A stretch of DNA of 64,000 nt from an uncultured Gammaproteobacteria bacterium (GTDB taxonomy: Bacteria; Pseudomonadota; Gammaproteobacteria; Chromatiales; Chromatiaceae): assembly GCA_963790775.1 (NCBI GenBank), contig CAWBPR010000012.1, positions 2,763 through 66,762 on the forward strand, read 5' to 3'. Made by a program: the position numbers and the translations under genes. The notes beneath the pieces were generated by a model. The model was not told where the DNA came from. It saw nothing but the letters and a program-made list of their open reading frames with translations, and did not search any database. This document shows, in pieces, positions 16,258 through 33,894 of this stretch (position 1 is its first letter; every line of letters starts with the position of its first letter).

Positions 16258-16260
16258 AGA

Positions 16261-18504: not shown

Positions 18505-20406
18505 GTGGTGGATTTAACGACTGCCGCAGACACTGTTCCGATGACGAAGACCATCCATGAGCATATTGTGGAGATCGTCAGCGACTCCGGTGAAGGTGCT
18601 CAGAAAGCGGGGCAGACCTTTGGTGCGGTATGCGCCAGAATGGGCAATGGCGTCTGGACCGTAGAGATCATCCCCGCGGAAATCCAGCCACCCGCCCGCT
18701 CTCCCGCAGGCGCCAGCGGTATCCGTATCCGTCTAGCCTCGCATAATGTCACCAACATGGGAGACGAGGCAGACATCGTGGTGGCCTTCAACGAACAGGT
18801 CCTTTACTCACGCATCGCCAACGGCGCCTACAGGAAAGGCACCCAGGTCCTGCTGGAAGATAAATGGCGCGATGATGCAGTCCCCGAGATCCGTGAGCAG
18901 TACCTCAAGGCAGTCACCGAATTCCGCAACAATGGACTGATCGTCCATGAGTTGCCCATTGAAAAGGCTTGCCTGGAGATCACGCCAAACCCACGCCGGG
19001 GCAAGAACATGTTCGTGCTGGGGATGTTGTGCCGCATCTATTCGCGGGATGTGGAGACGGCCAAGGGGGAAATCGCCACCACCTTCAGACGCAAGGGCGA
19101 CAAAGTCATCGGAATGAATCATCAGCTATTCGATGCAGGCTACCAGTTCGCCCGAGAGACCCTGGACCTGGATTACCAGATCCCGCCACAGCCTGCGCAG
19201 GAAAGGGAAGGCAAGCGCTTCATCGTGACTAACGGCAACACGGCGCTGGGCCTGGGGATTATGGCCTCAGGCATGGAACTGGTCGCCATGTACCCGATCA
19301 CCCCCGCCACATCGGCCTCTCACTACCTGGCCGACGTCTATCACGAGGTGGGTGGCTTCGTGCACCAGGCTGAGGACGAGATTGCCGCCGCCGGTTTTGC
19401 CATCGGAGCATCTTTCGCCGGCAAAACCGCCTGCACCATCACCTCGGGTCCCGGACTGGCGCTGAAGACCGAGATGCTGGCTCTGGCAGTGATGGCGGAA
19501 GTCCCCCTGGTGGTGTGTGTGGTGCAGCGGGGCGGGCCGTCCACCGGCCTGCCCACCAAGGTAGAGCAGGGAGATCTGCTGGCCTCACTCTTCGGTGAGC
19601 CGGGCGATGCCCCGAAAGTGGTGATTGCAGCGGCCACCATCGAGGAATGCCTGCATTTCGTGATCATGGCGCGGCGGCTCGCCGAGACCTTCCGCACGCC
19701 AGTGATACTGCTGACGGATGCCAATCTGGCCACCGGAGTGCAGCCCTACCCACGGCCGGAGCCAAGCCTGGACTGGCAGGCTCCACCCATCGACCAGTCG
19801 GTATGGGATGATTATATTCCGCCCTACAACTGGGACCCGGAGACCGGCCTGTCCCCACGCCCGATTCCCGGCATGCCCGGCGGACAGTACATCCTGACCG
19901 GCCTGGCCCATACCAACCAGAGCAAGGTAGCCTACGACTCTGACTCCAACCAGCACAGCGCCAACATGCGCAGCCGCAAGTTTGCCGCCCTGGGCAGCAC
20001 CCTGAAACCGCCTCCGCTGCATGGTGATGAAACCGGCGATCTGCTGGTTGTCGGCTGGGGTTCAACCCTGGGCGCCATCGAGGAAGCCGTGGATCGCGCC
20101 CGCGCCGGTGGTTACAAGGTCTCATCCCTGCACCTGCGTTTTCTCCTGCCCATGGAACCCGGCCTGAAAAAGATCTTTACGGGTTTTCGCAAAGTCATGA
20201 CGGTGGAGATCAATTACAGCGACGACCCGCACGCGCCCCTGATCACGCCAGAAAACCGCCGCTATTCCCAACTCGCCATGCTGCTCAGGGCACAGACGCT
20301 GATAGACATCGACTGCTGGTCCGTCGTCTACGGTCATCCCCTGCAACCAGGCATGATCCATGGCGTGCTTCTCAAACGGCTCGAAGCCATACAAGGAGAG
20401 GACTGA
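18505..20406 (+). CDS. korA: 2-oxoglutarate:ferredoxin oxidoreductase, alpha subunit (fused gamma+alpha type)
   Basis: 633 aa. The N-terminal gamma-like domain has IVSDSGEGAQKAG. The alpha domain has NGNTALGLG..MYPITPATS..EDEIAAAGFAIGASFAG..TSGPGLALK. The GTG at 18505 has GAGGG 8 nt upstream. An alternative ATG lies at 18541. Confidence 0.88.
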   Translation: MVDLTTAADTVPMTKTIHEHIVEIVSDSGEGAQKAGQTFGAVCARMGNGVWTVEIIPAEIQPPARSPAGASGIRIRLASHNVTNMGDEADIVVAFNEQVLYSRIANGAYRKGTQVLLEDKWRDDAVPEIREQYLKAVTEFRNNGLIVHELPIEKACLEITPNPRRGKNMFVLGMLCRIYSRDVETAKGEIATTFRRKGDKVIGMNHQLFDAGYQFARETLDLDYQIPPQPAQEREGKRFIVTNGNTALGLGIMASGMELVAMYPITPATSASHYLADVYHEVGGFVHQAEDEIAAAGFAIGASFAGKTACTITSGPGLALKTEMLALAVMAEVPLVVCVVQRGGPSTGLPTKVEQGDLLASLFGEPGDAPKVVIAAATIEECLHFVIMARRLAETFRTPVILLTDANLATGVQPYPRPEPSLDWQAPPIDQSVWDDYIPPYNWDPETGLSPRPIPGMPGGQYILTGLAHTNQSKVAYDSDSNQHSANMRSRKFAALGSTLKPPPLHGDETGDLLVVGWGSTLGAIEEAVDRARAGGYKVSSLHLRFLLPMEPGLKKIFTGFRKVMTVEINYSDDPHAPLITPENRRYSQLAMLLRAQTLIDIDCWSVVYGHPLQPGMIHGVLLKRLEAIQGED

Positions 20407-21359
20407 TGTTCGGATTAAAACCTGACTGGTCGCTGGAAGTCTTCGAGCGTTATTTCACCATGGGTGACTATGCGGGGGGCGAGGCCCGCTGGTGCCCCGG
20501 ATGCGGGGACCACGCGGTGCTGACTGCTGCGCAAAAGGTGTTGCGTGATGAACAGCAACGCCCGGAGATGTCCGTGTGCGTCTCCGGCATCGGTTGCTCC
20601 AGCCGCATGCCGCACTACATGGGCACGTTCGGCTTTCACGGCCTGCACGGGCGCGCCCTGCCCGTCGCCTGCGGCATCAAGTCCAGACGCCCGGAGTTGG
20701 ATGTGTGGGTAGCCAGCGGCGACGGCGACTGCTTCTCCATCGGCACCGCTCACTGGATTCACGCCCTGCGCTACAACATGGACATGACCCTGATGGTATT
20801 TGACAACTCGGTCTACGGATTGACCAAGGCCCAGACCTCCCCGACCAGCCCCCAGGGTTTCAAGACCAACACCCATCCATTTGGCGCCATTCTCGAGCCC
20901 CATAATCCGTTGACGGTGACTCTGGGAATCACCAACATCTCGTTCGTGGCCCAAGTGGTGGACTGGAACCCTCCGCTGCTCTACGAGACCCTCAAGGCCG
21001 CCTACCGACACAAGGGAACCGGGTTCGTGCGTATCATCCAGCGTTGCCCGGTTTATGCGGAACGGTTATCGAAGGAGTTGCAGGACAATCCGAGCCGCTT
21101 CGTGCTGCTGGAACATCCGCGGGGGATAGCGCTGGACAAGGGCGTGCGCCGCCAGTTTCCCAACCGGGTGGAGCACGATCCATCGGATCTCAACCGGGCC
21201 TTCCAACTCGCCGCCGATACAGCGTTGTTACCGGTGGGATTGCTCTATCACAACCCGCACGCTCCCTGCTACGAGGACCTGTCAAGCCAGGGTGTCGAGA
21301 TGACTCCTGAAGAGAGACTCGCCGGTTTTAATGCCGTGCTGGATCGCATCACTGTCTGA
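20406..21359 (+). CDS. korB: 2-oxoglutarate:ferredoxin oxidoreductase, beta (TPP-binding) subunit
   Basis: 317 aa with WCPGCGDH and an intact TPP motif (SGDGDCFSIG..VFDNSVYGLTKAQTSPT). The ATG shares 1 nt with the korA TGA. Confidence 0.9.
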   Translation: MFGLKPDWSLEVFERYFTMGDYAGGEARWCPGCGDHAVLTAAQKVLRDEQQRPEMSVCVSGIGCSSRMPHYMGTFGFHGLHGRALPVACGIKSRRPELDVWVASGDGDCFSIGTAHWIHALRYNMDMTLMVFDNSVYGLTKAQTSPTSPQGFKTNTHPFGAILEPHNPLTVTLGITNISFVAQVVDWNPPLLYETLKAAYRHKGTGFVRIIQRCPVYAERLSKELQDNPSRFVLLEHPRGIALDKGVRRQFPNRVEHDPSDLNRAFQLAADTALLPVGLLYHNPHAPCYEDLSSQGVEMTPEERLAGFNAVLDRITV

Positions 21360-21427
21360 TTCTGCGTGTTTGAGCATACGTCCCGAAACATTTAATGGAC
21401 TCCTAAAAAAACGAGAGTTTCACTGAA

Positions 21428-23944
21428 ATGACAACCACACACTCGGCCGGCAATGAACAGCAGACACAGTTGCCAGGCAGTGAACCCAAACAGCTGCCGT
21501 CCCTGCCGACAGCGGTGAAGGATGCCAGGGCTACCCGGGAACTGATGTTCGTGCTGCGTCATTTCCACCTCGGTGACCCCGCCGCCCGGGAGCAGCTGGA
21601 AGCGCTCGGCGATGACTATCTCCCGGCGCTGCTTGATCCATTCCGGGATAGTTCCAGGCTGCGTTACGACTACCCCCTGTTCCTTTTCCCCCCGCATACC
21701 GATGCCGGGTATCAGTCAGCCGATGAACTCGCCTGCCCCCTGGCGCAATGGTTCCAGCAGGCAGCGGCCAGCTTTACCCAGGGGGACGATAAGGCGCGCG
21801 TCCTCAAGGACCACTTCCCCTGGCTGGAACATCGTGTCCGCGAGTTGCTGCAGCAACGGGAAGGTCCGGTAGATGCCGGGGCGACCCTGGCGGAGTCCTG
21901 CCGCCTTTTACAGGCGCACCTGGCGCTGGCCGAACAGGATCGGAAGCGATTGAACAACGATATCGAGCAATTGCTGCAGGCTGTTCCGGAGGGGGCGCAG
22001 CTGCTGAGCTATGGCCGCTATCCCGCCCTGCACCTGCTGATCCATGCCGTCCGCAGTCAGATTTCACATCTCCAGACCCGCTTTCAGGAGCGGATCAATC
22101 AATCCATCCGCGGTCTCAAGGAACTGCTCGAAGTCGAGTGGTCGAAATCAGTCGAATCCATCGAGCCAAAACTGGCCCGAGATAGTATCGGTCTGGGTGG
22201 CGATCGCTTCGACCCCGCCATTCTGTCGGCGGTGATGGATCACTCCCGGGGCACCCAGAGAATGTCTCTGCAGCGGCGCGAGCGTATCGGACAAGCCCTG
22301 AAGATCATGGAGTCCTGGGCGCCGGATCCGGTGCTCGTCCATTTTCTGCACATGGGCACTCTGACCGATCCCTGGGTGCAAGATGTCGACTTCTGCCATG
22401 AGATAGCCGCTGGCGACCCCTGCGCCAAGGCGATGGAGGTTTTCGACCGCGAAGCGGAAAAGCTCACCGCAGTTTTCGGTGCGGTGCGCATCGCACAACT
22501 CGAGATCGAAGGTATTTACACGGCTGAGATCCACGATCCCTGGTTTGCGAATTTCACCTGGGAGGCCTTCTCTCAGGAAGAACTGAGACTGGTGCCATCG
22601 GTCATCGCATTGGGCTCGGCAGACCAGATGGCTGGAGAGGGCCTGCGTACTTTCTCCCGTCTGTTAAGCTCCGGGCGGCCGGTGCAGATCCTGATCCGGG
22701 TCCTGGCCCACGCCAACCCGGGCGCCGGACTCGACGAAGATGCGTTCCGGAATTTCCGCACCGAGCTGGGTTATCTGGGCATCAGCCATCGTCAGGCGGT
22801 TGTCGACCAATCGTCTGCCGCCCGCCATCAACATCTGTTGCAGTGCTATCTTTCGGCCCTGGATGCCACGCGCACCAGCCTGCATGTCATCAACACCGGT
22901 CTGCGTCCTCCCGGCAGGCTGCTCCCGCTCAATGCATGGCTGGTGGCCGGCGCCGCCATCGAAAGCCGCGCTCATCCGTTTTTCCGCATCAATCCGGAAG
23001 CGGGGGATTCCGCCGCCATGCGGATGGATTTCAGCGGCAACCCCCAGCAGGATAGAGACTGGCCCCTGCACCCGTTCCACTATCTGGACGACAACGGCAA
23101 CCCTGTCGACAGCGAACTGGCTTTCACCTTCGCCGACTATGCCCTGTTGATCGAACGACTGCGGGACCATTTCCGTCTGATTCCCGCGGGCTGCGACTCT
23201 GACGGACTAGTGTCGATACAGGATTATCTGGCGATGAACCCGGAGCAATCTTATCAGCGGGTGCCGTTCGTCTGGGCCATAGACGGCAATGCCATACTGC
23301 ACCGGCTGGTGATTTCCCGAGAACTCGCTCAGACCTGCCGTGACCGCCTCAATTACTGGCACACCCTGCAGGAAATGGCCGGCGTGCGAAACCGCTATGT
23401 CGAACTGGCGGTGGAAAAAACCCGGGCAGAGGAGCGCAAACTTGCCAGTGAGGAACGTGAGCGTCTGCGGGCGGAACATGCCGAGGCGCTGGAGCGCGTG
23501 CGGAACGAGGCTGCCGGTGAGGCCATGCAGCGCCTCACCGATGTCCTGTTGGGACTGGACTCCATAGGAATGCAGGGGGCGTACCTGCCGTCATCCGGTT
23601 CTTCCGCGGAACAGCCTGAAACCCCAGACGAGCAGGAGTCGGCACAACAGGCGATGCTTGGCACGCCGGACGAAGAGGATGAAGAACTGTCCTTTGACGA
23701 GCCCTGGATAGATACTCCGTTGTGCACCAGCTGTAATGACTGCCTGCCAATCAATCCACTGTTGTTCACCTATAACGAAGAAAAACAGGCGCTGCTCGGA
23801 GACCTGAGCAGCGCCACTTATGCCCAGCTGGTGCAGGCGGCCGAACTCTGTCCCGCCAGGTGCATCCATCCGGGCAAGCCACTTGATCCCGACGAGCCGG
23901 GCCTGGCCGAGTTGATCGATCGCGCCGCACCGTTCAACCAATGA
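21428..23944 (+). CDS. uncharacterised 838-aa protein: unknown N-domain + degenerate PFOR domain-VI-like core + coiled coil + C-terminal single-cluster ferredoxin domain
   Basis: The central region parallels the C-terminal third of the 1534-aa PFOR-like ORF and canonical PFOR: SVIALGSADQMAGEGLRTFSRLLSSGRPVQILI, ELGYLGISHRQAVV, SLHVINTG, RAHPFFRINPEAGD. The C-terminus has CTSCNDC..CPARC (CxxCxxC..CP). The stop overlaps the rnfB ATG (ATGA). Confidence 0.7.
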   Translation: MTTTHSAGNEQQTQLPGSEPKQLPSLPTAVKDARATRELMFVLRHFHLGDPAAREQLEALGDDYLPALLDPFRDSSRLRYDYPLFLFPPHTDAGYQSADELACPLAQWFQQAAASFTQGDDKARVLKDHFPWLEHRVRELLQQREGPVDAGATLAESCRLLQAHLALAEQDRKRLNNDIEQLLQAVPEGAQLLSYGRYPALHLLIHAVRSQISHLQTRFQERINQSIRGLKELLEVEWSKSVESIEPKLARDSIGLGGDRFDPAILSAVMDHSRGTQRMSLQRRERIGQALKIMESWAPDPVLVHFLHMGTLTDPWVQDVDFCHEIAAGDPCAKAMEVFDREAEKLTAVFGAVRIAQLEIEGIYTAEIHDPWFANFTWEAFSQEELRLVPSVIALGSADQMAGEGLRTFSRLLSSGRPVQILIRVLAHANPGAGLDEDAFRNFRTELGYLGISHRQAVVDQSSAARHQHLLQCYLSALDATRTSLHVINTGLRPPGRLLPLNAWLVAGAAIESRAHPFFRINPEAGDSAAMRMDFSGNPQQDRDWPLHPFHYLDDNGNPVDSELAFTFADYALLIERLRDHFRLIPAGCDSDGLVSIQDYLAMNPEQSYQRVPFVWAIDGNAILHRLVISRELAQTCRDRLNYWHTLQEMAGVRNRYVELAVEKTRAEERKLASEERERLRAEHAEALERVRNEAAGEAMQRLTDVLLGLDSIGMQGAYLPSSGSSAEQPETPDEQESAQQAMLGTPDEEDEELSFDEPWIDTPLCTSCNDCLPINPLLFTYNEEKQALLGDLSSATYAQLVQAAELCPARCIHPGKPLDPDEPGLAELIDRAAPFNQ

Positions 23945-24804
23945 GCAGCTATGTCATCGCACCAGCCATCATGACCGGGATCGGCCTGGTTTTTGCGGTT
24001 ATCCTGGCGGTGGCCTATCGGTTTCTGAAGGTGCAGGAAGATCCCCGGATCGAGGAAACCGAAGATCTGCTGCCAGGCTCCAATTGCGGCGCCTGCGGCC
24101 AACCCGGCTGTCACGCCTTCGCCGAACAGCTGGTGCAAGGGGCCGCTTCGCCCAGCAAGTGCACGGTCGCAAGCCAGGAAGTCATCGATTCGGTGGCGGA
24201 ACTGCTGGATGTCGATCCAGGTCAGCAGGAAAAACGCGTGGCCCGGCTGCATTGCGCCGGCGGCAAGGGCCAGGCTTACCAGATCGCCGAGTACCAGGGC
24301 TTCGACAGCTGTCTGGCTGCTGCCGTGGTATCCGGTGGCGGCAAGGGCTGCTCCTGGGGCTGCTTTGGTCTGGGCGACTGTCAGAAAGACTGCACTTTCC
24401 ACGCTATCACGATGAATTTCAATGGCCTGCCGGTGGTGGACGTGGACCGGTGCACCGCCTGCGGCGATTGCGTAGACACCTGCCCGAGGGACCTGTTCGA
24501 GCTGCTGCCCTTGAGTCAGCATTTATTCGTCCAGTGCAAGGCGCCGCTTGCCGGAGAGATGGCCGTCTCTCTCTGCATCACCGCATGCGATGCCTGTGAG
24601 CGCTGTGTGGCGGATGCGGCGCCGGGCCTTATCCGCATGCAGGACAATCTGCCGGTAGTGGATTATACAGGCGGTGGCCCGGCCCGGCCGGAGGCGACCT
24701 ATCGTTGCCCCACCGGCGCCATCCAGTGGCTGGAAGGCGCCCAGTTCGCAGACCAGCACACCACCAGAACCAAGAGTGAGACCCGCTATGCCCGGCTTCG
24801 CTAA
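23941..24804 (+). CDS. rnfB: Rnf complex subunit B (N-terminal TM anchor, CxxCGxxGC cluster domain, polyferredoxin)
   Basis: 287 aa. The TM helix is IAPAIMTGIGLVFAVILAVAY. Motifs present are NCGACGQPGC, CSWGCFGLGDCQKDC and CTACGDCVDTCP. Confidence 0.85.
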   Translation: MSSYVIAPAIMTGIGLVFAVILAVAYRFLKVQEDPRIEETEDLLPGSNCGACGQPGCHAFAEQLVQGAASPSKCTVASQEVIDSVAELLDVDPGQQEKRVARLHCAGGKGQAYQIAEYQGFDSCLAAAVVSGGGKGCSWGCFGLGDCQKDCTFHAITMNFNGLPVVDVDRCTACGDCVDTCPRDLFELLPLSQHLFVQCKAPLAGEMAVSLCITACDACERCVADAAPGLIRMQDNLPVVDYTGGGPARPEATYRCPTGAIQWLEGAQFADQHTTRTKSETRYARLR

Positions 24805-27800
24805 TACCGCCTTGCGGTTATTGAGACGCGTGCTCGGGACGACCTCCCGCACCACAGGTCCCTACGCCGGCAATCCGACCGTCCTCGACGGCAATACCGC
24901 GGTCGCAGTCACAGAAGCGGGGATCAGCGAAGCCGCGGGGTTGGGGGCCACCTTTCCTGCAGAGACCGCCGGACTGGCCTGGCGCAGCGAACAATGGCGC
25001 CACGGCAGCAACCTTGCGGGCAGCCCGCTCAGCACCCTGGCGGCGGAAGGACCCCGCGGCGCGCTGGCTGCCAGCATCGGCCTGGCGATGAGTGGCGTCA
25101 GGGCCACCAGCTTTCTGTCAGGCCCCGATCTGGTCCAGGCCATGGATCTATTGACACTCGCCGCCGGTCGCCGTCTGCCCCTGGTGATACACCTCAGCGA
25201 GCGCAGTCTTGCGGGCCATGCCCCTGCCCTGGGGAGCGGTCACCAGGCCCTGCACCTGAGCGCCGATGCAGGCTGTTTGCTGTTCACCGCAGCCAACGTG
25301 CAGGAGGCGGTGGATTTTTCCCTGATCGCCCGGCGCGTCGCAGAACAGGCCCTGATCCCAGCTCTGGTCGCCATGGATGCTGAGCAGACAGCCCTTGCCG
25401 TACAGGAGGTCCGGTTGCCCCCTGCAGAGCTGGTGGAAAGCTTCCTCGGGCGGCCCGGTGATCAGATACCGGCCCCGACGCCTGCGCAACAGTTGCTGTT
25501 GGGGGATGAGCGCAGGCGGACGCCCTGTTGGCACGACCCTGACCGCCCGGTGATGCTGAATGCTCTGCAAGCTCCGCAAGTTTGGGGGCTGGCCAGAGCT
25601 GCCGGGAAAGCCTGGTTCGACGACCATCTGGCGGCATGCCTCGAGGATGCCTTTGAACGTTTCGCCGCACAGACCGGGCGGCGGCATCGGCAGCTGTCAT
25701 CCTACCGCGTGGAAGATGCCAGACTGATCCTGGTGGCGCAGGGCGCGGCCGTCGAAACCCTGGAGGCGGTGGCAGATCATCTGCGCAGCAGGCACCGGCT
25801 GAAAACCGGCGTGCTGGGGGTCCGCTGTCTGCGTCCCTTTCCTGGAGCGGAGCTGGCGCGGCTCCTGGGCAAGCTGGGCAATGGCGCCAGAGTCTGCGTA
25901 CTGGAGCGCCTGGATACCCCCCTGGCCACGGATCCGCCCTTGTTGCGCGAGGTCCGCGCCACGCTTGACCACGCCTTGGAAAATGACCGCTTTGGGACGG
26001 ATACCCACCCTGACTATCCGGCGCTGAAAGAAAAACACCGGCCCAGGTTCCTGTCAGTCGTGTATGGCCTCGGTGGGTTTCCCCTGCGCGCTGCCGACCT
26101 GGCGGCCTTGTGCCGAAATCTGGCAACGATCCGCCGGCCCCAGGTCTATCTGGGGATTAATTTTTCACACACCTCCAGTGTCTATCCCAAACGACAGGTG
26201 TTGCTTGACCGCCTGCGCCGAAGCTATCCGGAGATCGTCGATCTGGGACTGACTGATGCCGCCGCTTCACCCGACCTGCGCCCGGCAGATGCCTTGACGC
26301 TGACCATACACCGGCTGTCCGGTGGCGCAGGCGAAGGGTTGTTGGCGGAAGCGGCAAGCTTCGCGCATCGGCTCCTGGGCGGCGGATTGCGCAGCAGACC
26401 GGCATTGTTCACCGAGCCTTGGGGCGGAGTCTGCCTTGACCGGCTTACCTTCGGCGCCGCAGACCTGCGGGACCCGGGAGACGAAACCCCCATCGATCTG
26501 GCGCTGATTACCACTGATTCCGACCTGCAGGAACTCTATCCTCAGCAGGGGCTCGATGCAGGATCCGCCCTGCTGGTGCAGAGCGCCCTTCCACATGAGG
26601 CGCTTTGGGCGCAACTGCCCGGCGCCGCTCGGGCTGTGCTGAAGGCGGCGGGCCGCCACCTGTACATCGTATCTCCCCTCGAAGGCCCCGCCTCCACCCG
26701 CAATGAATATCTGCTGGGCGCCTTGTTTGCGGTACTGCTGGACACCGGCCTGCTGAAGGTCACCCAGCGCCGCCTGCTCAGCGTCCGCGAGGAGATACTG
26801 CAGCAATCTGTAGTGGACGCCGGACAACAGCTGGCAGTTTTCGAAGCCGGCATGCAACAGGTCCAGCTGATCAACAGTGCACGTCTCCCCCTTGAGCCTG
26901 CGCAGGCGGCTATCGCTGCCGACGATGAGGCGCCTCCCCTGGTGCGCCGGCTGGGCAACATCGATAATGCCTACGACAGCCTCCCCCGCTTCTGGGACCA
27001 GGTCGGAGTGCTCTACAAACAAGGCAACACCAGTGAACTGGCGCCGGACCCCTATCTGGCGGTGGGGGCGGTGCCGCCCCTGTCGGCCAGTTTTCGCGAC
27101 CTAAGCCCGCTGCGGAGCGAGCTGCCCGTTTTTGAACCCGCGTTATGCACGGGGTGTGGCGCCTGCTGGAGCGCCTGCCCGGATTCGGCCATCCATACGC
27201 TGGCGATTTCACCTGCCCGTCTGATCGATGCGGGTATCCGCAGGACGGGTGCTGAGGCGCTGCGGCCGCTCGTCTCCAAGCTCGCGGCAGGCATCGCGGA
27301 GCAGTGCTCGCGCGAGGATTCCAGCGCTTCGACAGTGGCGCAGCTAGTGACTGGGGCCTACGACAGGCTGAAGGGGAAACTGCCCTTCCCGGAAGAACGC
27401 AAGGCAGCGATCAACGCAGGCCTGGATCAGTTGCTGACGGCATTCGGCTGTCTGCCCGTTGCAGTCACTGCCGCCCTGTTTTTCGAGTCCGAGAACCAGG
27501 CAAAGGGCAGCGGAGAGCTGCTGGCGCTGGCAGTGGACACAGGCGGTTGTAAGGGCTGCGGGATCTGCATCCAGGCCTGCGAGCCGGGGGCGCTGCAGCT
27601 TGCCCATCAAAGCGCTGATGTCCTGTCTCAGGCGCGGCGGATTCAGCAGGCCTGGCACGAGCTGCCCGACACTCAGCCGGCAACAATTCAACGCCTGGGA
27701 CAGCACCCCGGAGTCGGTGCAACGGCAGCGGCGCTGCTTGGACGCGGTGCGGGACTGGCCATCACCGGCGGCGACGGCGCGGAACCTGGATCCGGGGCCA

Positions 27801-29392
27801 AGCTGGCGCTACGCCTGGTGCTGGCGGTCGTGGAGGGTCAGCAAGCTCCGCGGTTTGAGGCTTTCCTGAAAGAGATCCATGCCACCCGTGGGAAAATAAC
27901 CGGATTGATCCGCGATATCCTGGCGGATGCCCTGCCCGCCGATGACCTGGATGCTCTGTCCCGTGGTCTGGATAACATCAATACCCGGCATGCCGATATG
28001 AGCACACTGCTAGGTGAAGCGGAACAGGCGATTGGCAGCGCGCTTGACGCCGCCAGGCTGCGCCGGCTGGTTGACTTGGCGCGGGCGCTGGGCGACCTCG
28101 CCTGGCGGGTGTCCAGCGGACGCCAGGGAATGGGGCGCGCCCGGGTGAGCCTGGTGCTCTCACCCGGCTCTATGGTGAGTTGGGCCAGCAGCTTCCCGCA
28201 CAACCCGTTTTCAGTTCCCGTCACCCTGGACCCCAGTGGTGACGGCGCTCAGCTTGCCGCCGGCTTGCTGGAAGGTCAACTGCGCCAGGCGACACAGGGT
28301 TTTGTACTGATGCGCAAGGCGCGCGTGGAGCTGCAGCGCCCGGCGGACGCGGCCCGCGCCTGGTCAGACCTCGAGGCTTTGTCCTGGCGTGACCTCGATG
28401 ATGCAGAGCGGGCCTTATGTCCCTCACTGCTTCTGGTAGGCGACAGCAGCCTGCTGAGCGGCGCTGGCCTGGGGCAGGTGAGCATTATTCTCGGTAATGA
28501 TTTGCCGGTTAAAATGCTGTTGCTCAGCGACCTGGACCTGGGGATCGACAAACCGGCAGGCCTGCAGGCTCCCCTGGCCGCAGTGGATGATGTCAGCGTA
28601 GATCTAGGCCTGTTGGCGATCGCCCGGCGCGGCGCCTGCATCGCCCAGACCGCGATCAGCGCCAGCGCGCATTTTGCCGCAAGCATTCACTCGGCCTTTA
28701 CCTTCCGGGGTCCGGCCCTGCTGCATGTGCATGCCCCAAGCCCGGCGCGCCATGGCTTCGCACCGGACCAGACCCTGCACCGGGCCCAGGCCGCAGTGGA
28801 CGCCAGGGTGTTTCCCCTGTTCCGTTATGATCCTGAGGCCGAAGGCGTGTTCGGCTCCCGCATCAGTCTGGATGGCAACCCGGCTCCTCTGGATACCTGG
28901 AACATGATTTCGGATGGGAGCGCCTGCACCCCTGCCCAATGGGCGTTGGGCGAGGAGCGCTTCTGCGATTGGTTCCTGCCGTTGCAGGAGGACGCTGCCG
29001 ATCCAACCCCAATAGCGGAATATCTAACCCTGCCCCGGCGGGAGCGAAGCAAACGGACGCCCTTTGTGGAACAAACAACCAGTGGCAGCGAGACCCAGCG
29101 CTTCTCGGTTGATCAGTGGCTGGTGCGCATCAGCGAGGAGCGGCAAGACTCCTGGCGCATGCTGCAGGAGCTGGCAGGGCTGGTGACTCCATTTACTGCG
29201 CGGGTAGAGCGAGCGGCGGAAGCACGTGTTGCTGCGGACCACAAGGCTGAGCTGAGCGCACAGGCAGAAGTCTACGAACAGCGTCTTCGGGATCTGCGCA
29301 ACGCGCTTCAGCAAGAAAACCGCCAGCAGATGCGTGAACGCCTGATGCAGCTTGCCGGCTACCGCGACGCTGCCGTACGCAAATCGGGTTAG
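24788..29392 (+). CDS. PFOR (pyruvate:ferredoxin oxidoreductase)-like protein, 1534 aa, catalytic motifs apparently degenerate
   Basis: The start is trimmed to the first ATG after the rnfB overlap (MPGFANTALRL). Collinear with PFOR domains I-VI: DGNTAVAVTEAG.., LSGPDLVQAMDLL.., VRCLRPFPG..VLERLD, and a 2x[4Fe-4S] domain (CTGCGACWSACP at 27146, CKGCGICIQACEP at 27548). The TPP region reads GDSS..LLLSDLDLG and the FPLFRYDPEAEG box is present. Confidence 0.8.
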   Translation: MPGFANTALRLLRRVLGTTSRTTGPYAGNPTVLDGNTAVAVTEAGISEAAGLGATFPAETAGLAWRSEQWRHGSNLAGSPLSTLAAEGPRGALAASIGLAMSGVRATSFLSGPDLVQAMDLLTLAAGRRLPLVIHLSERSLAGHAPALGSGHQALHLSADAGCLLFTAANVQEAVDFSLIARRVAEQALIPALVAMDAEQTALAVQEVRLPPAELVESFLGRPGDQIPAPTPAQQLLLGDERRRTPCWHDPDRPVMLNALQAPQVWGLARAAGKAWFDDHLAACLEDAFERFAAQTGRRHRQLSSYRVEDARLILVAQGAAVETLEAVADHLRSRHRLKTGVLGVRCLRPFPGAELARLLGKLGNGARVCVLERLDTPLATDPPLLREVRATLDHALENDRFGTDTHPDYPALKEKHRPRFLSVVYGLGGFPLRAADLAALCRNLATIRRPQVYLGINFSHTSSVYPKRQVLLDRLRRSYPEIVDLGLTDAAASPDLRPADALTLTIHRLSGGAGEGLLAEAASFAHRLLGGGLRSRPALFTEPWGGVCLDRLTFGAADLRDPGDETPIDLALITTDSDLQELYPQQGLDAGSALLVQSALPHEALWAQLPGAARAVLKAAGRHLYIVSPLEGPASTRNEYLLGALFAVLLDTGLLKVTQRRLLSVREEILQQSVVDAGQQLAVFEAGMQQVQLINSARLPLEPAQAAIAADDEAPPLVRRLGNIDNAYDSLPRFWDQVGVLYKQGNTSELAPDPYLAVGAVPPLSASFRDLSPLRSELPVFEPALCTGCGACWSACPDSAIHTLAISPARLIDAGIRRTGAEALRPLVSKLAAGIAEQCSREDSSASTVAQLVTGAYDRLKGKLPFPEERKAAINAGLDQLLTAFGCLPVAVTAALFFESENQAKGSGELLALAVDTGGCKGCGICIQACEPGALQLAHQSADVLSQARRIQQAWHELPDTQPATIQRLGQHPGVGATAAALLGRGAGLAITGGDGAEPGSGAKLALRLVLAVVEGQQAPRFEAFLKEIHATRGKITGLIRDILADALPADDLDALSRGLDNINTRHADMSTLLGEAEQAIGSALDAARLRRLVDLARALGDLAWRVSSGRQGMGRARVSLVLSPGSMVSWASSFPHNPFSVPVTLDPSGDGAQLAAGLLEGQLRQATQGFVLMRKARVELQRPADAARAWSDLEALSWRDLDDAERALCPSLLLVGDSSLLSGAGLGQVSIILGNDLPVKMLLLSDLDLGIDKPAGLQAPLAAVDDVSVDLGLLAIARRGACIAQTAISASAHFAASIHSAFTFRGPALLHVHAPSPARHGFAPDQTLHRAQAAVDARVFPLFRYDPEAEGVFGSRISLDGNPAPLDTWNMISDGSACTPAQWALGEERFCDWFLPLQEDAADPTPIAEYLTLPRRERSKRTPFVEQTTSGSETQRFSVDQWLVRISEERQDSWRMLQELAGLVTPFTARVERAAEARVAADHKAELSAQAEVYEQRLRDLRNALQQENRQQMRERLMQLAGYRDAAVRKSG

Positions 29393-29423: not shown

Positions 29424-30764
29424 ATGCTAGCCCTGTCCAGACTGTTCAAGCGCGGCTTCTCCCACGGTATTCATCCACATGCATACAAGGAGCAGACTGC
29501 CGGACTGCACACCCAGCGCATGCCCTTCGTCGAGCGCTATATACTTCCCGTTCACCAGCACCTGGGAGCCCCTTCCAAGCCTGTGGTGGAAGTGGGGCAG
29601 CGGGTGGGACGCGGGACATTGATCGCCGAACCGGGGGCCTTCGTCTCCACCAGTCTGCACAGCCCGGTTACCGGCTGGGTCCGGGCCATCGGCCGACGGC
29701 GCTTTCCCGGCGGCCGCTATGCACAGGCCATCGAGATCGAGGCGGACCCCTATGCCACCCAACGGCTGGATGTCGAGCGCCCTCCCGATTGGCGCGGCCT
29801 GTCGCTGGAGGATTTCGTTTCCGTGATGCAGCTGACGGGTATCGTCGGCCTGGGCGGGGCCTCGCTTCCCGCCCACGTCAAATACTCCCTGCGCGAGGGG
29901 GTGAAGATCAAATACCTGATCGCCAACGGCGCTGAGTGCGAGCCCTATCTGACCAACGACCACCGGGTGATGGTGGAGCGGCCTGACGCCCTGCTGCGCG
30001 GTATGGAAATTCTGCAAACTCTGCTCGGCGCCGAGGAATCCATCATCGGCATCGAACTCAACAAGCCCGATGCCATCGAGGCGCTGCGTGCGCGCATCCC
30101 TTCCGACCGGCCCTGCCGGGTGGCGCCCCTGCGGGTCAAGTATCCCCAGGGTGATTCGAAAATGCTCATCAAATCCCTGTTGAACATAGAGGTTCCCACG
30201 GGTCTGCACGCGGCGGACCTGGGGATCATTATGAATAATGTAAGCACCATTGCCGCGATCGCGGACTACTTCGACACCGGCCTGCCCTATATCGACCGCA
30301 TGGTCACGGTGTCTGGTCCCGGTATCGAATACCCCGCCAATCTGATCGTGCCATTGGGTACGCCGGTGCGAGAGGTGTTGCGTTTCTGTGGCGGCCTTAA
30401 ACGCGACACCAAGGAGGTCATCATGGGCGGCCCCATGATGGGCACCCCGATCGCCAGCCTGGACGCTCCGATCATCAAATCAAGCTCCGGGGTGCTGGCC
30501 TTTACGGCCGAGCAGACGGCCCGCCCCAAAGAGTATCCCTGCATCCGTTGCGGCCGTTGCGTGGAGGCCTGCCCCTATTTTCTCAATCCGTCCAAACTGG
30601 CCCGTCTGGCCAAGGCGCGCCTGTTCGAAAAGATCAAGCAGGCCAACGTGATGGAGTGTGTGGAGTGCGGTTCCTGCACCTACTCCTGTCCCTCGGGTAT
30701 CCCGATCGTGCAGCTGATCCGAAGCGCGAAAAGCGACATCCGCAGTAAGAAGGGGGCGAGATGA
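29424..30764 (+). CDS. rnfC: Rnf complex subunit C
   Basis: 446 aa. Motifs present are FSHGIHP, HLGAPSKPVVEVGQRV, GLGGASLPAHVK, ANGAECEPYLTNDHR, KYPQGDSKML, and two 4Fe-4S motifs (CIRCGRCVEACP, CVECGSCTYSCP). Confidence 0.88.
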   Translation: MLALSRLFKRGFSHGIHPHAYKEQTAGLHTQRMPFVERYILPVHQHLGAPSKPVVEVGQRVGRGTLIAEPGAFVSTSLHSPVTGWVRAIGRRRFPGGRYAQAIEIEADPYATQRLDVERPPDWRGLSLEDFVSVMQLTGIVGLGGASLPAHVKYSLREGVKIKYLIANGAECEPYLTNDHRVMVERPDALLRGMEILQTLLGAEESIIGIELNKPDAIEALRARIPSDRPCRVAPLRVKYPQGDSKMLIKSLLNIEVPTGLHAADLGIIMNNVSTIAAIADYFDTGLPYIDRMVTVSGPGIEYPANLIVPLGTPVREVLRFCGGLKRDTKEVIMGGPMMGTPIASLDAPIIKSSSGVLAFTAEQTARPKEYPCIRCGRCVEACPYFLNPSKLARLAKARLFEKIKQANVMECVECGSCTYSCPSGIPIVQLIRSAKSDIRSKKGAR

Positions 30765-31768
30765 TGCACAAAGACCCCAAGCTGCTGGTGCAGCCAGCCC
30801 CCTTATTGAAGCAGAACATGAGCACGGTGCAGAGCATGCGCGATGTGCTCTACGCCCTGCTGCCGGCAACCCTGGCGGCAATCTGGCTGTTCGGCCTGGG
30901 GGCGCTGCTGGTGCTGCTGGCGTGCATTCTGGGGGCAGTATTCACCGAGTGGATCTTCTCGCCTGCGGAACAGCGCTCGGTGCGGCTGCTGGATACCAGC
31001 GGGGTGCTGACCGGTTTGCTGCTGGGGCTCTCCCTGCCCCCCGCGCTGCCGCTGTGGATGGCCTTCCTGGGCGGGGTTGTTTCCATTGGCCTGGGTAAAC
31101 TGATCTGGGGCGGGTTGGGGCAAAACCTGTTCAATCCGGCCCTGGTTGGCCGGGCTTTTCTGCTTGCAACTTTCCCCAATGCCATGACCACCTGGAGCTC
31201 CCAGCTGAGCGGGGAAGGCTTTTTCCAATGGCACCCTTCCAATCTTGCCCTGCCTTTCATGCAGCCCGAATATGACATGCTCTCTGCGGCCACGCCCCTG
31301 GGACTGATGAAATTCGAACAGCAGCCCACTGCGCTGCTGGACTTGATGCTGGGCAATACCGCCGGCTGCCTGGGAGAGACCAGCGGTCTGCTGTTGCTGG
31401 CGGGCGGGGTGTTCCTGCTGCTGAGGCGGGATATTGACTGGCGCATCCCGACGGGTATTTTGCTCTCCGTGGCAGTGCTCTCCGTTGTCTTGTATGCCCT
31501 CGACGCCGCCCGCTTTCCGGACCCTCTGTTCGCCGTGTTCTCCGGCGGGTTGTTGCTGGGCGCCTTCTACATGGCCACCGACCCGGTCACCTCACCGCTG
31601 ACCCCGCGCGGCGCCTGGATCTTTGCGCTTGGCGTTGGCCTGCTGGTGGTGGTCATCCGACTCTTCGGCGGCTTTCCAGAAGGAGTGATGTACGCGATTC
31701 TACTGATGAATGCGGCCACCCCGCTGATCGACCGTTTTATCCAGCCCCGGCTGTTCGGCAAGGTGTGA
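30761..31768 (+). CDS. rnfD: Rnf complex subunit D (polytopic membrane, FMN site)
   Basis: 335 aa and multi-TM, with NqrB/RnfD-type motifs (LFNPALVGRAFL, SAATPLG, YMATDPVTSP). The ATG overlaps the rnfC stop. Confidence 0.88.
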   Translation: MMHKDPKLLVQPAPLLKQNMSTVQSMRDVLYALLPATLAAIWLFGLGALLVLLACILGAVFTEWIFSPAEQRSVRLLDTSGVLTGLLLGLSLPPALPLWMAFLGGVVSIGLGKLIWGGLGQNLFNPALVGRAFLLATFPNAMTTWSSQLSGEGFFQWHPSNLALPFMQPEYDMLSAATPLGLMKFEQQPTALLDLMLGNTAGCLGETSGLLLLAGGVFLLLRRDIDWRIPTGILLSVAVLSVVLYALDAARFPDPLFAVFSGGLLLGAFYMATDPVTSPLTPRGAWIFALGVGLLVVVIRLFGGFPEGVMYAILLMNAATPLIDRFIQPRLFGKV

Positions 31769-31775: not shown

Positions 31776-32432
31776 ATGAAGAACCGGACTCAGCCCCCCA
31801 TCAAGAACGTTGAACCCGGCTCCAGCCGGCTGGTGGCCACCCTTGGCTTCGCCGGCCTGCTGTCGGGCCTGATCATCGTGTCGGTGTACGAGGCCACGCT
31901 GCCGACTATCTCCGCCTACAAGGCCAAGGTGCTGCAGGAAGCGGTGTTCAGGGTGCTTCCGGGCACTACTCGCCTGCAGCAACTGGCTTACCGCGAGGAC
32001 AGGCTGACTGCGGTGGAGAAGTTAGAGAAGGACGAGGAGTCCATCTTCGGCGGCTATGACACGCAGGGGAATCTTGTGGGCTATGCCATCCCCGGCTCAG
32101 GCCCCGGCTTCCAGGACATCATCCGGCTGCTGTACGGCTACCTGCCGGAACAACGCAAGGTGGTCGGCATGGAGATCCTGGAAAGCCGTGAAACCCCGGG
32201 GCTCGGGGATAAGATCTACAAAGACGCCGGGTTCGTGGCTAATTTCGATGATTTGTCTATCGAGCCGGAACTGGTGGTGGTGAAGAAGGGCAACAAGGCC
32301 GCTGCGAACGAGATAGACGCCATCACCGGAGCGACTATTTCCTCCAAGGCAGTGGCGCGCATCATCAATCAAGCGAACCAGCAATGGTCTGCGCGCCTGG
32401 AGGCTCCGGATGAAAACAAAGCTGTCGACTAG
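31776..32432 (+). CDS. rnfG: Rnf complex subunit G (FMN-binding)
   Basis: 218 aa with an N-terminal TM anchor. Motifs present are ETPGLGDKI and the flavinylation motif DAITGATISSKAV. Confidence 0.88.
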   Translation: MKNRTQPPIKNVEPGSSRLVATLGFAGLLSGLIIVSVYEATLPTISAYKAKVLQEAVFRVLPGTTRLQQLAYREDRLTAVEKLEKDEESIFGGYDTQGNLVGYAIPGSGPGFQDIIRLLYGYLPEQRKVVGMEILESRETPGLGDKIYKDAGFVANFDDLSIEPELVVVKKGNKAAANEIDAITGATISSKAVARIINQANQQWSARLEAPDENKAVD

Positions 32433-32485: not shown

Positions 32486-33136
32486 ATGCCGCAAAAAAAA
32501 CAGGATGCCACTCAGGAGTTCATCAAGGGTCTGTGGCGGGACAATCCGGTCTTCGTCCAGGTGCTGGGCATGTGTCCCATGCTGGCGGTCACCAACTCGG
32601 CGGTGAACGCCCTGGCCATGGGTGGGGCGACCTTCTTCGTGCTGGTGACCTCGAGTTTTCTCGTCTCGTCGCTGAAACACTGGATTCCAAAGCAGGTGCG
32701 CATCTCCACCTATATCATCATCATCGCCACCTTCGTCACCGTCACTGATTTCACCCTGCAGGCCCTGGCGCCAGAGATCCATAAGGAACTGGGGGCCTTC
32801 ATCCCGCTGATTGTGGCCAACTGCATGATCCTGGGTCGGCAGGAAGCCTTCGCCTCGCGCAATTCGGTGCGTTTGGCCGTGGTAGACGCGCTGGGCATGG
32901 CGAGTGGTTTTATGTTCGCCCTGCTCTCCCTGGGGGCGGTGCGTGAGATACTGGGTGAGGGCTCCCTGTTCGGAATCAAGCTGTTCAGCGAGAATTTCGA
33001 GCCCTGGGTGATCATGATTCTGCCGCCCGGCGGCTTCCTCACCCTGGGCCTGCTGTTGCTGTTTTTCAATTGGCTGAAGGAGCGCAAGGATAAACTGATT
33101 CAACGGCTGGACGAGATGGAGGTCGAAGCACGATGA
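32486..33136 (+). CDS. rnfE: Rnf complex subunit E
   Basis: 216 aa. Motifs present are GLWRDNPVFVQVLGMCP and FIPLIVANCMILGR, typical of RnfE/NqrD. Confidence 0.88.
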   Translation: MPQKKQDATQEFIKGLWRDNPVFVQVLGMCPMLAVTNSAVNALAMGGATFFVLVTSSFLVSSLKHWIPKQVRISTYIIIIATFVTVTDFTLQALAPEIHKELGAFIPLIVANCMILGRQEAFASRNSVRLAVVDALGMASGFMFALLSLGAVREILGEGSLFGIKLFSENFEPWVIMILPPGGFLTLGLLLLFFNWLKERKDKLIQRLDEMEVEAR

Positions 33137-33711
33137 ACGAAATCGTCTGGATTTTTATCAGCGCCCTGTTGATCAACAATTTTGTATTGGCCTATTTTCT
33201 CGGCCTGTGTCCCTTCCTGGGAGTCTCGCAACGCCTGGAAACTGCCTTCCGTCTCGGACTGGCCACCATCTTCGTGATGCTGATCACCGCCCTGTGCGCC
33301 TGGGTTCTGAATACCTACATTCTGATTCACGCGCCTTACCTGCGGCTGATCAGTTTCATCGTAGTCATCGCCAGTACGGTCCAGTTCATCGAGATGGTGA
33401 TCAAGAAGCTGAGCCCGGCCCTGTTCAAGGCTCTGGGGATCTTCCTGCCGTTGATCACCACTAACTGCGCCATCCTGGGTCTGGCAATCTTTGCCACCAA
33501 TAAAGGCTATGGATTCGCCGAGGGTATGGCCTATGCTTTGGGCGCCGGCCTGGGATTCACCCTGGCTCTGGTGCTGATGGCCGGTCTGCGGGAGGAATCA
33601 GAGTTGGCGGCAGTGCCGAGGTTGATCAAGGGCACCGCCATGAATCTGATCATTGCGGGGATTCTCTCCATGGCCTTCATGGGTTTCGCCGGTTTACTCA
33701 GCACTGCCTGA
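33133..33711 (+). CDS. rnfA: Rnf complex subunit A
   Basis: 192 aa. Motifs present are NNFVLAYFLGLCPFLGVS and LPLITTNCAILG, typical of RnfA/NqrE. There is a 4-nt overlap with rnfE. Confidence 0.88.
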   Translation: MNEIVWIFISALLINNFVLAYFLGLCPFLGVSQRLETAFRLGLATIFVMLITALCAWVLNTYILIHAPYLRLISFIVVIASTVQFIEMVIKKLSPALFKALGIFLPLITTNCAILGLAIFATNKGYGFAEGMAYALGAGLGFTLALVLMAGLREESELAAVPRLIKGTAMNLIIAGILSMAFMGFAGLLSTA

Positions 33712-33723
33712 CTGTCTAGGATT

Positions 33724-33894
33724 ATGTGGACTCATCTATTCGCGATCTTGGGATTAGTCGCCTTATGCGCAGGCTGGGTGCTGTTTCAACAGTGGCTGCG
33801 GCGGGTAGACCCGGCGTCTGGGAAATCCGCAGATTCCTGTTCCGGGTGTAGATCCTGTGGCTGTACCCCACCAACCCAGGAAGACAGGGAGTGA
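33724..33894 (+). CDS. small (56 aa) membrane protein with Cys-rich tail, below the ORF-track cutoff
   Basis: My own translation is MWTHLFAILGLVALCAGWVLFQQWLRRVDPASGKSADSCSGCRSCGCTPPTQEDRE-stop. This is one TM helix, a basic stretch and CSGCRSCGC. An AGGA lies 3 nt before the ATG, 12 nt after the rnfA stop. The architecture resembles FeoB-associated Cys-rich peptides. Confidence 0.45.
   Translation: MWTHLFAILGLVALCAGWVLFQQWLRRVDPASGKSADSCSGCRSCGCTPPTQEDRE

Follow-up and report, generated by a model that had tools for sequence, protein, structure and literature searches.

We analyzed an operon on a 64,000-nucleotide stretch of DNA from an uncultured gammaproteobacterium of the Chromatiaceae (contig CAWBPR010000012.1, positions 2,763 to 66,762; "the window" refers to this whole stretch). 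At positions 18505-33894 of the window 11 co-directional open reading frames (ORFs) are located on the + strand in the order korA-korB-p838-rnfB-p1534-rnfCDGEA, followed by a gene for a 56-aa Cys-rich membrane peptide. They combine a two-subunit 2-oxoacid:ferredoxin oxidoreductase, KorAB, with the subunits of an Rnf complex and two large proteins of 838 and 1534 aa, termed p838 and p1534. Both large proteins have lost the catalytic motifs of pyruvate:ferredoxin oxidoreductase (PFOR) and show colinear homology to a long, motif-intact paralog, PFOR-L, and we therefore regard them as pseudo-enzymes of PFOR-L descent. We find it on balance probable that these pseudo-PFORs wire Rnf to KorAB within one operon, which would encode a dedicated low-potential redox module with a preference for the reductive direction.

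Loss of the catalytic centers in p1534 and p838

The two proteins and their features are listed below (TPP, thiamine pyrophosphate; OFOR, 2-oxoacid:ferredoxin oxidoreductase).

24788..29392, + strand: p1534, full-length pseudo-PFOR with domains I, II, degenerate III, V and degenerate VI and a long C-terminal helix, no ferredoxin tail (POR_N, PFOR_II and Fer4 by Pfam)
27146..27580, + strand: ferredoxin-domain motifs CTGCGACWSACP (C787-C797) and CKGCGICIQAC (C921-C931) of p1534, two retained [4Fe-4S] sites aligned with the PFOR-L motifs
27767..27796, + strand: GGDGAEPGSG of p1534, relic of the proximal-cluster CxxC (GGDGSCMGCGEK in PFOR-L) with Cys replaced by Glu and Cys by Ser (MAFFT alignment against intact paralogs)
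28418..28555, + strand: TPP/Mg-site relic "LCPSLLLVGDSSLL...LLLSDL" of p1534, GGDG changed to G-x-S and the DTxVYSNTGGQ loop deleted (14 residues)
28733..28744, + strand: APSP of p1534, Ser in place of the fourth proximal-cluster Cys, where OFORs have APCP or TPCQ (profiles against oxalate oxidoreductase beta and M. acetivorans PorB)
21428..23944, + strand: p838, colinear with the C-terminal ~900 residues of PFOR-L; domain V/VI is degenerate, residues 656-708 form a long helix, and a disordered acidic linker (~711-757) leads to a ferredoxin tail with a single cluster
23723..23863, + strand: ferredoxin-tail Cys C766, C769, C772, C808(P) and C812 of p838, homologous to the PFOR-L tail

The family profile of p1534 aligns with the PFOR of Moorella thermoacetica (6cin) with E=3e-54 and colinear domains. 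An AlphaFold2 (AF2) model, which comprises residues 701-1534 only, reached a predicted local distance difference test (pLDDT) score of 79.8 and matched 6cin in Foldseek with E=7.5e-14. Compared with the homodimeric PFORs of Desulfovibrio africanus (1b0p) and Moorella thermoacetica, p1534 has the same fold, domain order and two ferredoxin-domain clusters. Unlike these enzymes it lacks the TPP/Mg motif, the catalytic Glu and the proximal cluster, its domain III is degenerate, and it carries extra insertions of ~350 residues as well as the long C-terminal helix. The Cys of the two ferredoxin-domain motifs (C787/790/793/797 and C921/924/927/931) are invariant both in 26 and in 48 aligned members; outside of them C1211 is the only invariant Cys.

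For p838 the PFOR ancestry is visible by profile comparison only, the family hidden Markov model (HMM) matching the C-terminal half of PFOR-L with E=2.5e-111. In BLASTP p838 aligns to p1534 residues 1009-1470 (E=2e-21). Pfam and NCBIfam recognize only the C-terminal Fer4_13 domain (PF13370, E=4e-07), and in a PDB sequence search with p838 the ferredoxin tail alone was matched (D. africanus ferredoxin I, 1dax, E=2e-4). This domain of ~55 residues carries a Cx2Cx2C...CP motif, and 28 family members all keep its five Cys. The AF2 model of p838 is mediocre (pLDDT 63), with an ordered helix and tail and a linker of pLDDT<50. All Foldseek matches were OFOR beta or TPP PP domains, at a level that lends weak support only (best E=0.016, none E<0.01). 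A solitary 50-residue C-terminal helix is found in the models of both p838 and p1534. The p838 family runs parallel to the p1534 family and is annotated merely as "ferredoxin".

We carried out a motif census on 120 members each of the PFOR-L and p1534 families, using the motifs YPITP, EGEH, CxGCGE, TGC[ST] and DTxxYSNTGGQ. All five were present in 120/120 PFOR-L proteins. YPITP, EGEH and DTxxYSNTGGQ were found in none of the 120 p1534 members, and no p838 member contained any of the five. The state of each site in the three families is as follows.

Substrate loop: YPITP in PFOR-L; GA(S/T)FPA in p1534; p838 has no counterpart of domains I-III
Catalytic Glu: EGEH in PFOR-L; AEG(P/A)R in p1534; again no counterpart of domains I-III in p838
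Proximal-cluster CxxC: GGDGSCMGCGEK in PFOR-L; GGDGAE(P/A)GSG in p1534; lost in p838
Third Cys: TGC[ST] in PFOR-L; PG(S/T/x) in p1534; lost in p838
TPP/Mg motif: GGDG...DTxVYSNTGGQ in PFOR-L; G-x-S and a 14-residue deletion in p1534; lost in p838
Fourth Cys: TPC in PFOR-L; APS in p1534; lost in p838
Two ferredoxin-domain motifs: present in PFOR-L; present in p1534 with eight invariant Cys; lost in p838
C-terminal ferredoxin tail: in PFOR-L of L062 and in P0288, motif in 86/120; absent from p1534; present in p838 with five invariant Cys

Domain III (PF01558), which gives a strong Pfam match in PFOR-L, was undetectable in p1534. A new metal site formed by the four former proximal-cluster positions of p1534 (Glu, Ser, x, Ser) was considered and rejected as a conserved site, the third position being variable.

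The initial annotation of this region had proposed that both large proteins are derived from PFOR and do not act as 2-oxoacid oxidoreductases. Our data agree with this, since the TPP/Mg motif, the catalytic Glu and the proximal Cys are absent family-wide and are kept in paralogs from the same operon type. The family-wide loss also rules out the counter-case named there, an ordinary PFOR next to rnf with intact catalytic sites on profile alignment. Database names and the description of the Solemya velum symbiont present p1534 as an active PFOR within rnf, through which pyruvate would donate electrons to Rnf. Several sources annotate it as "pyruvate ferredoxin oxidoreductase" and the literature agrees; domains I, II, V and VI are recognizable, and a motif-intact PFOR-L occupies the same slot in other phyla. 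We nevertheless consider this reading highly improbable: the p1534 family has neither the GDG...N motif for TPP/Mg (14-residue deletion) nor the catalytic Glu, the four proximal Cys or a detectable PF01558 domain, and p1534 scores 127 bits against a cutoff of 911 bits for the PFOR equivalog TIGR02176.

A second possibility is that p1534, with or without p838, has become a new enzyme with TPP-independent chemistry or a new cofactor, which exchanges electrons with RnfB. A number of conserved residues would fit such a function, namely the invariant GGDGAE.GSG (G994, G995, D996, E999, G1001 and G1003), R139 (the equivalent of the substrate-binding Arg), H135, H152, H156, D1148, D1152 and HAPSP.RHGF. 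Against it stand the lack of a motif of any other cofactor family in p1534 or p838 by Pfam and NCBIfam, the variable third former Cys position, the degenerate CoA-binding domain III and the lowest sequence conservation in the operon. We regard a new enzyme as rather unlikely.

PFOR-L, a motif-intact paralog in the same operon type

PFOR-L was found as a third paralog of ~1,670 aa in loci L062 and L029, where the canonical motifs are intact and the same insertions as in p1534 are present. Its C-terminal helix carries the W..L.ELAG motif of the window proteins, after which come an Ala/Pro linker and, at the C terminus, a Fer4_13 ferredoxin. The family comprises >4,700 matches with lengths of ~1,650-1,750 aa in Acidobacteriota, Gemmatimonadota, Myxococcota and others, and its members are named "2-oxoacid:acceptor oxidoreductase family protein". 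The p1534 HMM matches PFOR-L with 1039 bits. PFOR-L thus shares its insertions and the C-terminal helix motif with the window proteins and its ferredoxin tail with p838, and it is located in the same slot between rnfB and rnfC downstream of korAB. It keeps every catalytic motif, whereas p1534 and p838 of the window split its non-catalytic features between them. Judged from these sequences, the PFOR-L type is the direct ancestor type of both proteins, and of a single PFOR-L subunit p1534 and p838 jointly keep exactly the predicted electron-export centers, namely clusters B and C and the tail, without a catalytic head.

In Gemmatimonadota-type genomes the operon reads korAB-X-rnfB-PFOR-L-rnfCDGEA(-apbE) and contains a motif-intact PFOR-L (L081, 3351-16362; L082, 4291-18429); in L082 apbE follows rnfA. 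The proteins X of 337 and 340 aa, which replace p838 in these two loci, were not counted as p838 homologs (BLASTP E=0.1, no HMM or Pfam match). An operon of this type with a motif-intact PFOR-L was also seen in L083 (8001-19129). Locus L084 (2574-21148) has korAB, a tail-less p838-like protein, PFOR-L with tail and then rnfB, while L062 (1-18765) has korAB, a p838-like protein, PFOR-L, rnfB, p1534 and rnfCDGEA. In L029 a second pair of rnfB and PFOR-L is located after rnfA (19432-24623). Across these arrangements there is one ferredoxin tail per pair: it is on PFOR-L where the p838-like protein is tail-less (L084, L062) and on p838 where p1534 is tail-less. Because a live PFOR-L fills the same slot in other phyla, the tie of the large protein to rnfB is older than its loss of catalysis.

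Conservation of gene order

Relatives of p1534 with a length of ~1,500-1,550 aa were found >600 times in sulfur-oxidising Gammaproteobacteria (Ca. Thiodiazotropha, Thiosymbion, Chromatiaceae, Thiomargarita, Parabeggiatoa); the nearest named ones belong to Ca. Thiodiazotropha and an uncultured gammaproteobacterial metagenome-assembled genome. We scanned one genome per GTDB species, in which at least 442 relatives are encoded, and analyzed 79 loci by mapping ten window proteins. The denominators given below are the loci with enough flanking sequence. In 66/71 loci rnfB lies upstream of p1534 at a distance of no more than 3 kb, and the two genes overlap in 25. p838 is found upstream in 54/63 loci. 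korAB is present upstream in 49/58 loci, always together with p838 (co-occurrence 49/49), and rnfCDGEA follows p1534 in 46/58. The syntenic loci span Chromatiaceae, Sedimenticolaceae, Thiodiazotropha, Woeseiaceae, Thiohalomonadaceae and others. Dozens of species-level genomes repeat the complete order, far more than chance would produce. The single block proposed initially, in which a PFOR-like gene separates rnfB from rnfC, is thus one conserved operon: the adjacency is widespread and korAB mostly co-occurs.

In all loci examined p1534 and p838 are intact ORFs. They are the fastest-evolving proteins of the operon, with a mean identity of 48% and 53%, respectively, in comparison to 63-82% for the rest, which fits non-catalytic subunits. 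Such subunits could also have a structural or assembly role in this Rnf subtype, with their clusters off the main electron path and korAB as a co-regulated consumer that uses soluble ferredoxin. By analogy they would resemble the enzyme-derived accessory subunits of respiratory complex I, kept because RnfB came to need the PFOR-L scaffold. The fast evolution of both proteins, the ancient linkage of rnfB and PFOR-L, the persistence of rnfB-p1534 without adjacent korAB in several lineages and the fact that p838 can be unlinked all speak for this explanation. On the other hand eight and five cluster Cys are strictly conserved, exactly one tethered ferredoxin occurs per pair, p838 and korAB co-occur in 49/49 loci and the operon has no gene for a soluble ferredoxin. 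A purely structural role therefore appears unlikely to us, if by no means negligible.

Operon layout, KorAB and Rnf

The ORF coordinates and strands given in the initial annotation match the ORF list exactly, and all of the overlaps described there are present on reading the sequence. Base 20406 is common to the korA TGA and the korB ATG, and a 68-nt gap (21359/21428) separates korB from p838. The ATGA at 23941-23944 is the p838 stop and the rnfB start. The ATG of p1534 lies at 24788 and the rnfB TAA at 24802-24804, resulting in a 17-nt overlap. Further ATGA overlaps are located at 30761-30764 (rnfC/rnfD) and 33133-33136 (rnfE/rnfA). The remaining genes are (FMN, flavin mononucleotide):

18505..20406, + strand: korA, alpha subunit (domains III-I-II) of a two-subunit 2-oxoacid (probably 2-oxoglutarate):ferredoxin oxidoreductase (POR, POR_N and PFOR_II by Pfam)
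20406..21359, + strand: korB, beta subunit, TPP/Mg motif and four proximal [4Fe-4S] Cys intact (TPP_enzyme_C and PFO_beta_C by Pfam)
23941..24804, + strand: rnfB, membrane-anchored polyferredoxin subunit with 20 Cys, overlapping both neighbors (Pfam FeS and Fer4; NCBIfam rnfB)
29424..30764, + strand: rnfC, NADH/FMN-binding subunit with 2 x [4Fe-4S] (TIGR01945, 484 bits)
30761..31768, + strand: rnfD (PF03116, E=3.6e-110; TIGR01946)
31776..32432, + strand: rnfG, FMN_bind, DAITGATISS motif (Pfam/NCBIfam)
32486..33136, + strand: rnfE (Pfam/NCBIfam)
33133..33711, + strand: rnfA (Pfam/NCBIfam)
33724..33894, + strand: 56-aa peptide, one transmembrane helix and the Cys-rich tail CSGCRSCGC, directly after rnfA

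KorA reaches 493 bits for TIGR03710, above the NCBIfam cutoff. Its best solved relative is the alpha subunit of the Magnetococcus 2-oxoglutarate:ferredoxin oxidoreductase (OGOR; 6n2n_A, E=4e-86), and YPITPAT and QAEDEIA are intact. In the alignment of KorB to 5b46_B WCPGCGD, GIGCSS, GDGD...DN.VYGLTK.Q and QRCP are all present. These alignments bear out the earlier description of KorAB as motif-intact. No Fer4 domain and no delta subunit were found in KorAB by Pfam, NCBIfam or alignment to solved relatives. KorAB needs an external low-potential partner, as it is without a ferredoxin domain. The OGOR of Magnetococcus marinus (6n2n) has the same KorA domains III-I-II, the same TPP motif and four Cys in KorB and likewise no ferredoxin domain. 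KorAB of Hydrogenobacter thermophilus is a two-subunit 2-oxoglutarate:ferredoxin oxidoreductase. In contrast to these two-subunit enzymes, korAB of the window is part of an rnf operon whose dedicated Fe-S proteins stand in for small soluble ferredoxins as partners; no soluble ferredoxin gene was found among the eleven ORFs of the operon by ORF list and Pfam.

The operon encodes the complete set of six Rnf subunits, A to E and G. By subunit content RnfABCDGE is predicted to be an ion-translocating ferredoxin:NAD+ oxidoreductase. RnfC, D, E and A score above the curated NCBIfam cutoffs and RnfG slightly below (92.6 vs 102). The solved Rnf complexes of Acetobacterium woodii (9eri), Azotobacter vinelandii (8ahx) and Clostridium tetanomorphum (7zc6) have the same six core subunits. 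As in these, RnfC of the window has Nuo51-type FMN/NADH and 2 x [4Fe-4S] motifs and RnfB an N-terminal Fe-S domain followed by a polyferredoxin; RnfG carries a putative TGAT flavinylation motif. At the predicted covalent-FMN sites, judged by eye, RnfG reads DAITGATISS and RnfD SAATPL instead of a strict SGAT. Unlike in the solved complexes, a 4.6-kb pseudo-PFOR gene is located between rnfB and rnfCDGEA, korAB and a second pseudo-PFOR gene precede rnfB, and the gene for the 56-aa Cys-rich peptide follows. To our knowledge none of these extras is known from characterized Rnf complexes.

The initial annotation had also questioned the nucleotide/flavin site of RnfC, which reads GLGGASLP and KYPQGDSKML. 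This concern did not hold. RnfC aligns over its full length with 9eri_C, 8ahx_C and 7zc6_C (E~1e-90) with both CxxCxxCxxxCP motifs present, and its motifs are within the variation of the solved proteins: the first reads GLGGATFP in A. woodii, GLGGAIFP in A. vinelandii and GMGGATFP in the third, the second KYPQGAEKQL in A. woodii and LYPMGSAKQL in A. vinelandii. GGAGFP, which the annotation had given for characterized RnfC, is absent from all three and is the NuoF motif. Operon-type RnfC orthologs usually have GMGGAAFP and KYPQGAEKML; among 53 of them KYPQGDSKML (residues ~240-249) is unique to the window and GLGGASLP occurs in 3. The odd residues are lineage-specific substitutions and not a trait of this Rnf type.

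For the 56-aa peptide no Pfam or NCBIfam match was obtained. A homologous ORF with a transmembrane helix and a Cys-rich tail follows rnfA in ~42/50 related loci, mostly starting 0-45 nt past rnfA. The peptide could be a small Rnf-associated subunit that has gone unrecognised, or could serve in the handling of metal or clusters.

A possible wiring of Rnf to KorAB

The two pseudo-PFORs are co-inherited with korAB and, taken by their sequences, are probably coupled translationally to rnfB and Fe-S-bearing. In the proposed model Rnf, together with the small Cys-rich membrane peptide, would couple NADH and the ion-motive force to electrons at the ferredoxin level. p838 and p1534 would pair via their homologous long C-terminal helices and the pair would dock on RnfB. 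Electrons would be shuttled between RnfB/p1534 and KorB by the leashed ferredoxin domain of p838. In this scheme the ion gradient would drive reverse electron flow from NADH and thereby power the reaction of succinyl-CoA and CO2 to 2-oxoglutarate; oxidation of 2-oxoglutarate would use the same path backwards. The model builds on the observed gene content, motif states, ancestry, synteny and co-regulation in Endoriftia, from which we infer the formation of a complex, the electron path and the direction. A role of the PFOR-like proteins as non-catalytic electron-transfer or docking parts of a Rnf-KorAB module is in our opinion the best-supported reading, though unproven.

The genes around the operon in related genomes and published expression data are relevant to the direction. 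In Sedimenticola/Polarisedimenticolaceae-type genomes sucC and sucD are located between p1534 and rnfC (L019, 14714-17193; the same 2.6-kb gap is seen in L022, L023, L026 and L072), and in tubeworm symbionts sucCD directly follows p1534 (L038, 14723-16888). Upstream of korA, many related loci (L013, 282-3591; L038, 42-2414; L016, L019, L023, L026, L046, L072 and L075) carry genes for a TfrA/SdhA-like flavoprotein and a NuoF-like FMN/NADH protein as well as an ORF of ~140 aa. The TfrA-like and NuoF-like genes may encode a soluble NADH-dependent fumarate reductase completing a branch from fumarate to 2-oxoglutarate. In Endoriftia under sulfide limitation KorA(3) and KorB(3) change by -2.62 and -2.57, and the next gene, a "PFOR-like ferredoxin" with a consecutive locus tag, by -1.91 (Mitchell et al., 2024). 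korAB is therefore co-regulated with the p838 homolog in this one organism. The assimilatory-nitrogen genes nirB and glnL fall under the same limitation (Mitchell et al., 2024). What favors the reductive direction is the presence of sucCD and of fumarate-reductase-like genes, the fact that expression falls along with that of nitrogen-assimilation genes when energy is limiting, and a host lifestyle rich in reductant.

The same wired module might instead work mainly in the oxidative direction. KorAB would then oxidize 2-oxoglutarate and close the tricarboxylic acid (TCA) cycle without 2-oxoglutarate dehydrogenase, the electrons passing via p838/p1534 and RnfB to NAD+ while Rnf builds the ion gradient. 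Rnf and OGOR are both reversible, which agrees with this direction, and sucCD fits it as well; moreover, Mitchell et al. (2024) state that the function and in vivo direction of the RNF and OGOR/PFOR isoforms are unknown. The TfrA-type fumarate-reductase-like flavoprotein and NuoF-like gene upstream in relatives argue against it, as do the drop of the Endoriftia genes under sulfide limitation together with assimilatory-nitrogen genes and the hosts being autotrophic sulfur oxidisers rich in reductant. We consider a mainly oxidative module doubtful, yet a serious possibility.

Several points weigh against the reductive Rnf-KorAB module. The reductive direction is favored by context only. The contacts of p838 and p1534 with Rnf or KorAB are postulated, and the 2-oxoglutarate specificity of KorAB is presumed only from similarity to the M. 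marinus OGOR, the sucCD context and literature usage. rnfB-p1534 occurs without adjacent korAB or p838 in Thiosymbion, Beggiatoaceae and Thiorhodococcus, so that the pair may serve Rnf generally and not KorAB specifically. In Thiorhodococcus the rnf cluster (L020, L028) has the order rnfB-p1534-rnfDGEA with an inverted rnfC further downstream and no korAB within 7-9 kb, and p838 stands alone on another contig (L085, 7001-9514); the 795-aa neighbor of this p838 is unrelated. Tubeworm symbionts have korAB-p838-rnfB-p1534-sucCD and no rnfCDGEA within 10 kb. Furthermore the inner cluster of p1534 is without an obvious partner once the proximal cluster is lost, and a through-wire may not be guaranteed. 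Finally many invariant polar residues persist around the former active site of p1534 and could point to a new activity instead of a scaffold role.

Genomic surroundings of the operon

Downstream of 33.9 kb the G+C content drops (to 0.47), followed by a HicAB pair and an SNF2 helicase, and a prs-like gene is located upstream of the operon. These flanking genes and the drop in G+C support the operon boundaries as initially drawn. A scan for promoters and terminators across 17-35 kb was uninformative, the counts equalling the shuffled expectation and no intergenic terminator being found. The HicB/HicA toxin-antitoxin pair (34201-34874, - strand) and the SNF2-family helicase (35594-38530, + strand) lie immediately 3' of the operon, and two phage-type integrase genes are present at the left end of the window (637-3076). 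The operon adjoins variable or mobile DNA. Further upstream, region 3949-7972 encodes a sigma-54 response regulator along with a PAS sensor kinase. On the opposite strand, immediately ahead of the prs-like gene, lie genes for a hybrid histidine kinase and a periplasmic binding protein of the phosphonate type (13600-17181); either set could regulate the operon. In region 8506-13584 a TPR protein and an SCO1/SenC copper chaperone are encoded next to a multihaem cytochrome of 874 aa (10045-12669, - strand), whose domains are MtrC/MtrF-like and of the cytochrome c7/c3 type.

Relation to published work

The initial annotation had implied that the adjacency of rnfB, a PFOR-like gene and rnfC is novel. 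It was already reported for the Solemya velum symbiont, where the large gene was read as PFOR (Dmytrenko et al., 2014). Dimeric korAB is common in gammaproteobacterial autotrophs (Rubin-Blum et al., 2019). In the literature searched we found passing genomic mentions only of the PFOR-like/rnf architecture and no functional characterization, and no description of the rnfB-PFOR-L-rnfC operon type. Likewise no paper was found that recognizes the missing TPP site and proximal cluster, the descent from PFOR-L or the breadth of the synteny, which, given incomplete literature coverage, is absence of evidence only. The adjacency is known; the pseudo-enzyme nature of the two proteins, their origin and their distribution appear to be new.

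The closest parallel is the Hdr-Flx/KorABCD cluster for the reductive TCA cycle in tubeworm symbionts and Thioflavicoccus, in which an OGOR is likewise interleaved with an electron-supplying complex and direct hand-over has been proposed (Rubin-Blum et al., 2019; Mitchell et al., 2024). Unlike the operon of the window, that cluster has a four-subunit KorABCD, uses flavin-based bifurcation instead of an ion-gradient-driven Rnf and contains no pseudo-PFORs.

Significance

Reconstructions of thiotroph metabolism (Thiodiazotropha, Thiosymbion, Beggiatoaceae, Endoriftia and the Solemya symbiont) that count p1534 as pyruvate synthase or PFOR are counting a protein unable to bind TPP. The two proteins also represent a clean case of pseudo-enzyme evolution, in which one long PFOR gave rise to two dead paralogs that jointly keep the electron-export parts only. 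Rnf, OGOR and PFOR are individually familiar systems. With regard to the delivery of ferredoxin-level electrons to oxygen-sensitive carboxylases in aerobic or microaerobic autotrophs, the operon offers a concrete, testable wiring diagram.

A more far-reaching and speculative idea, which we regard as doubtful, is that in gammaproteobacterial sulfur oxidisers Rnf forms a hard-wired carboxylation supercomplex without soluble ferredoxin, as it would in Gemmatimonadota-type bacteria with a live PFOR-L. RnfB would be bolted to an OGOR that has no ferredoxin domain by two PFOR-derived proteins, and the leashed ferredoxin would be the sole mobile carrier. If this were true, the membrane potential would directly drive CO2 fixation into 2-oxoglutarate, and in the ancestral form also into pyruvate, in microoxic cells, and accessory subunits of enzymatic origin would be described for the first time in an Rnf complex, in the form of the dead PFORs.

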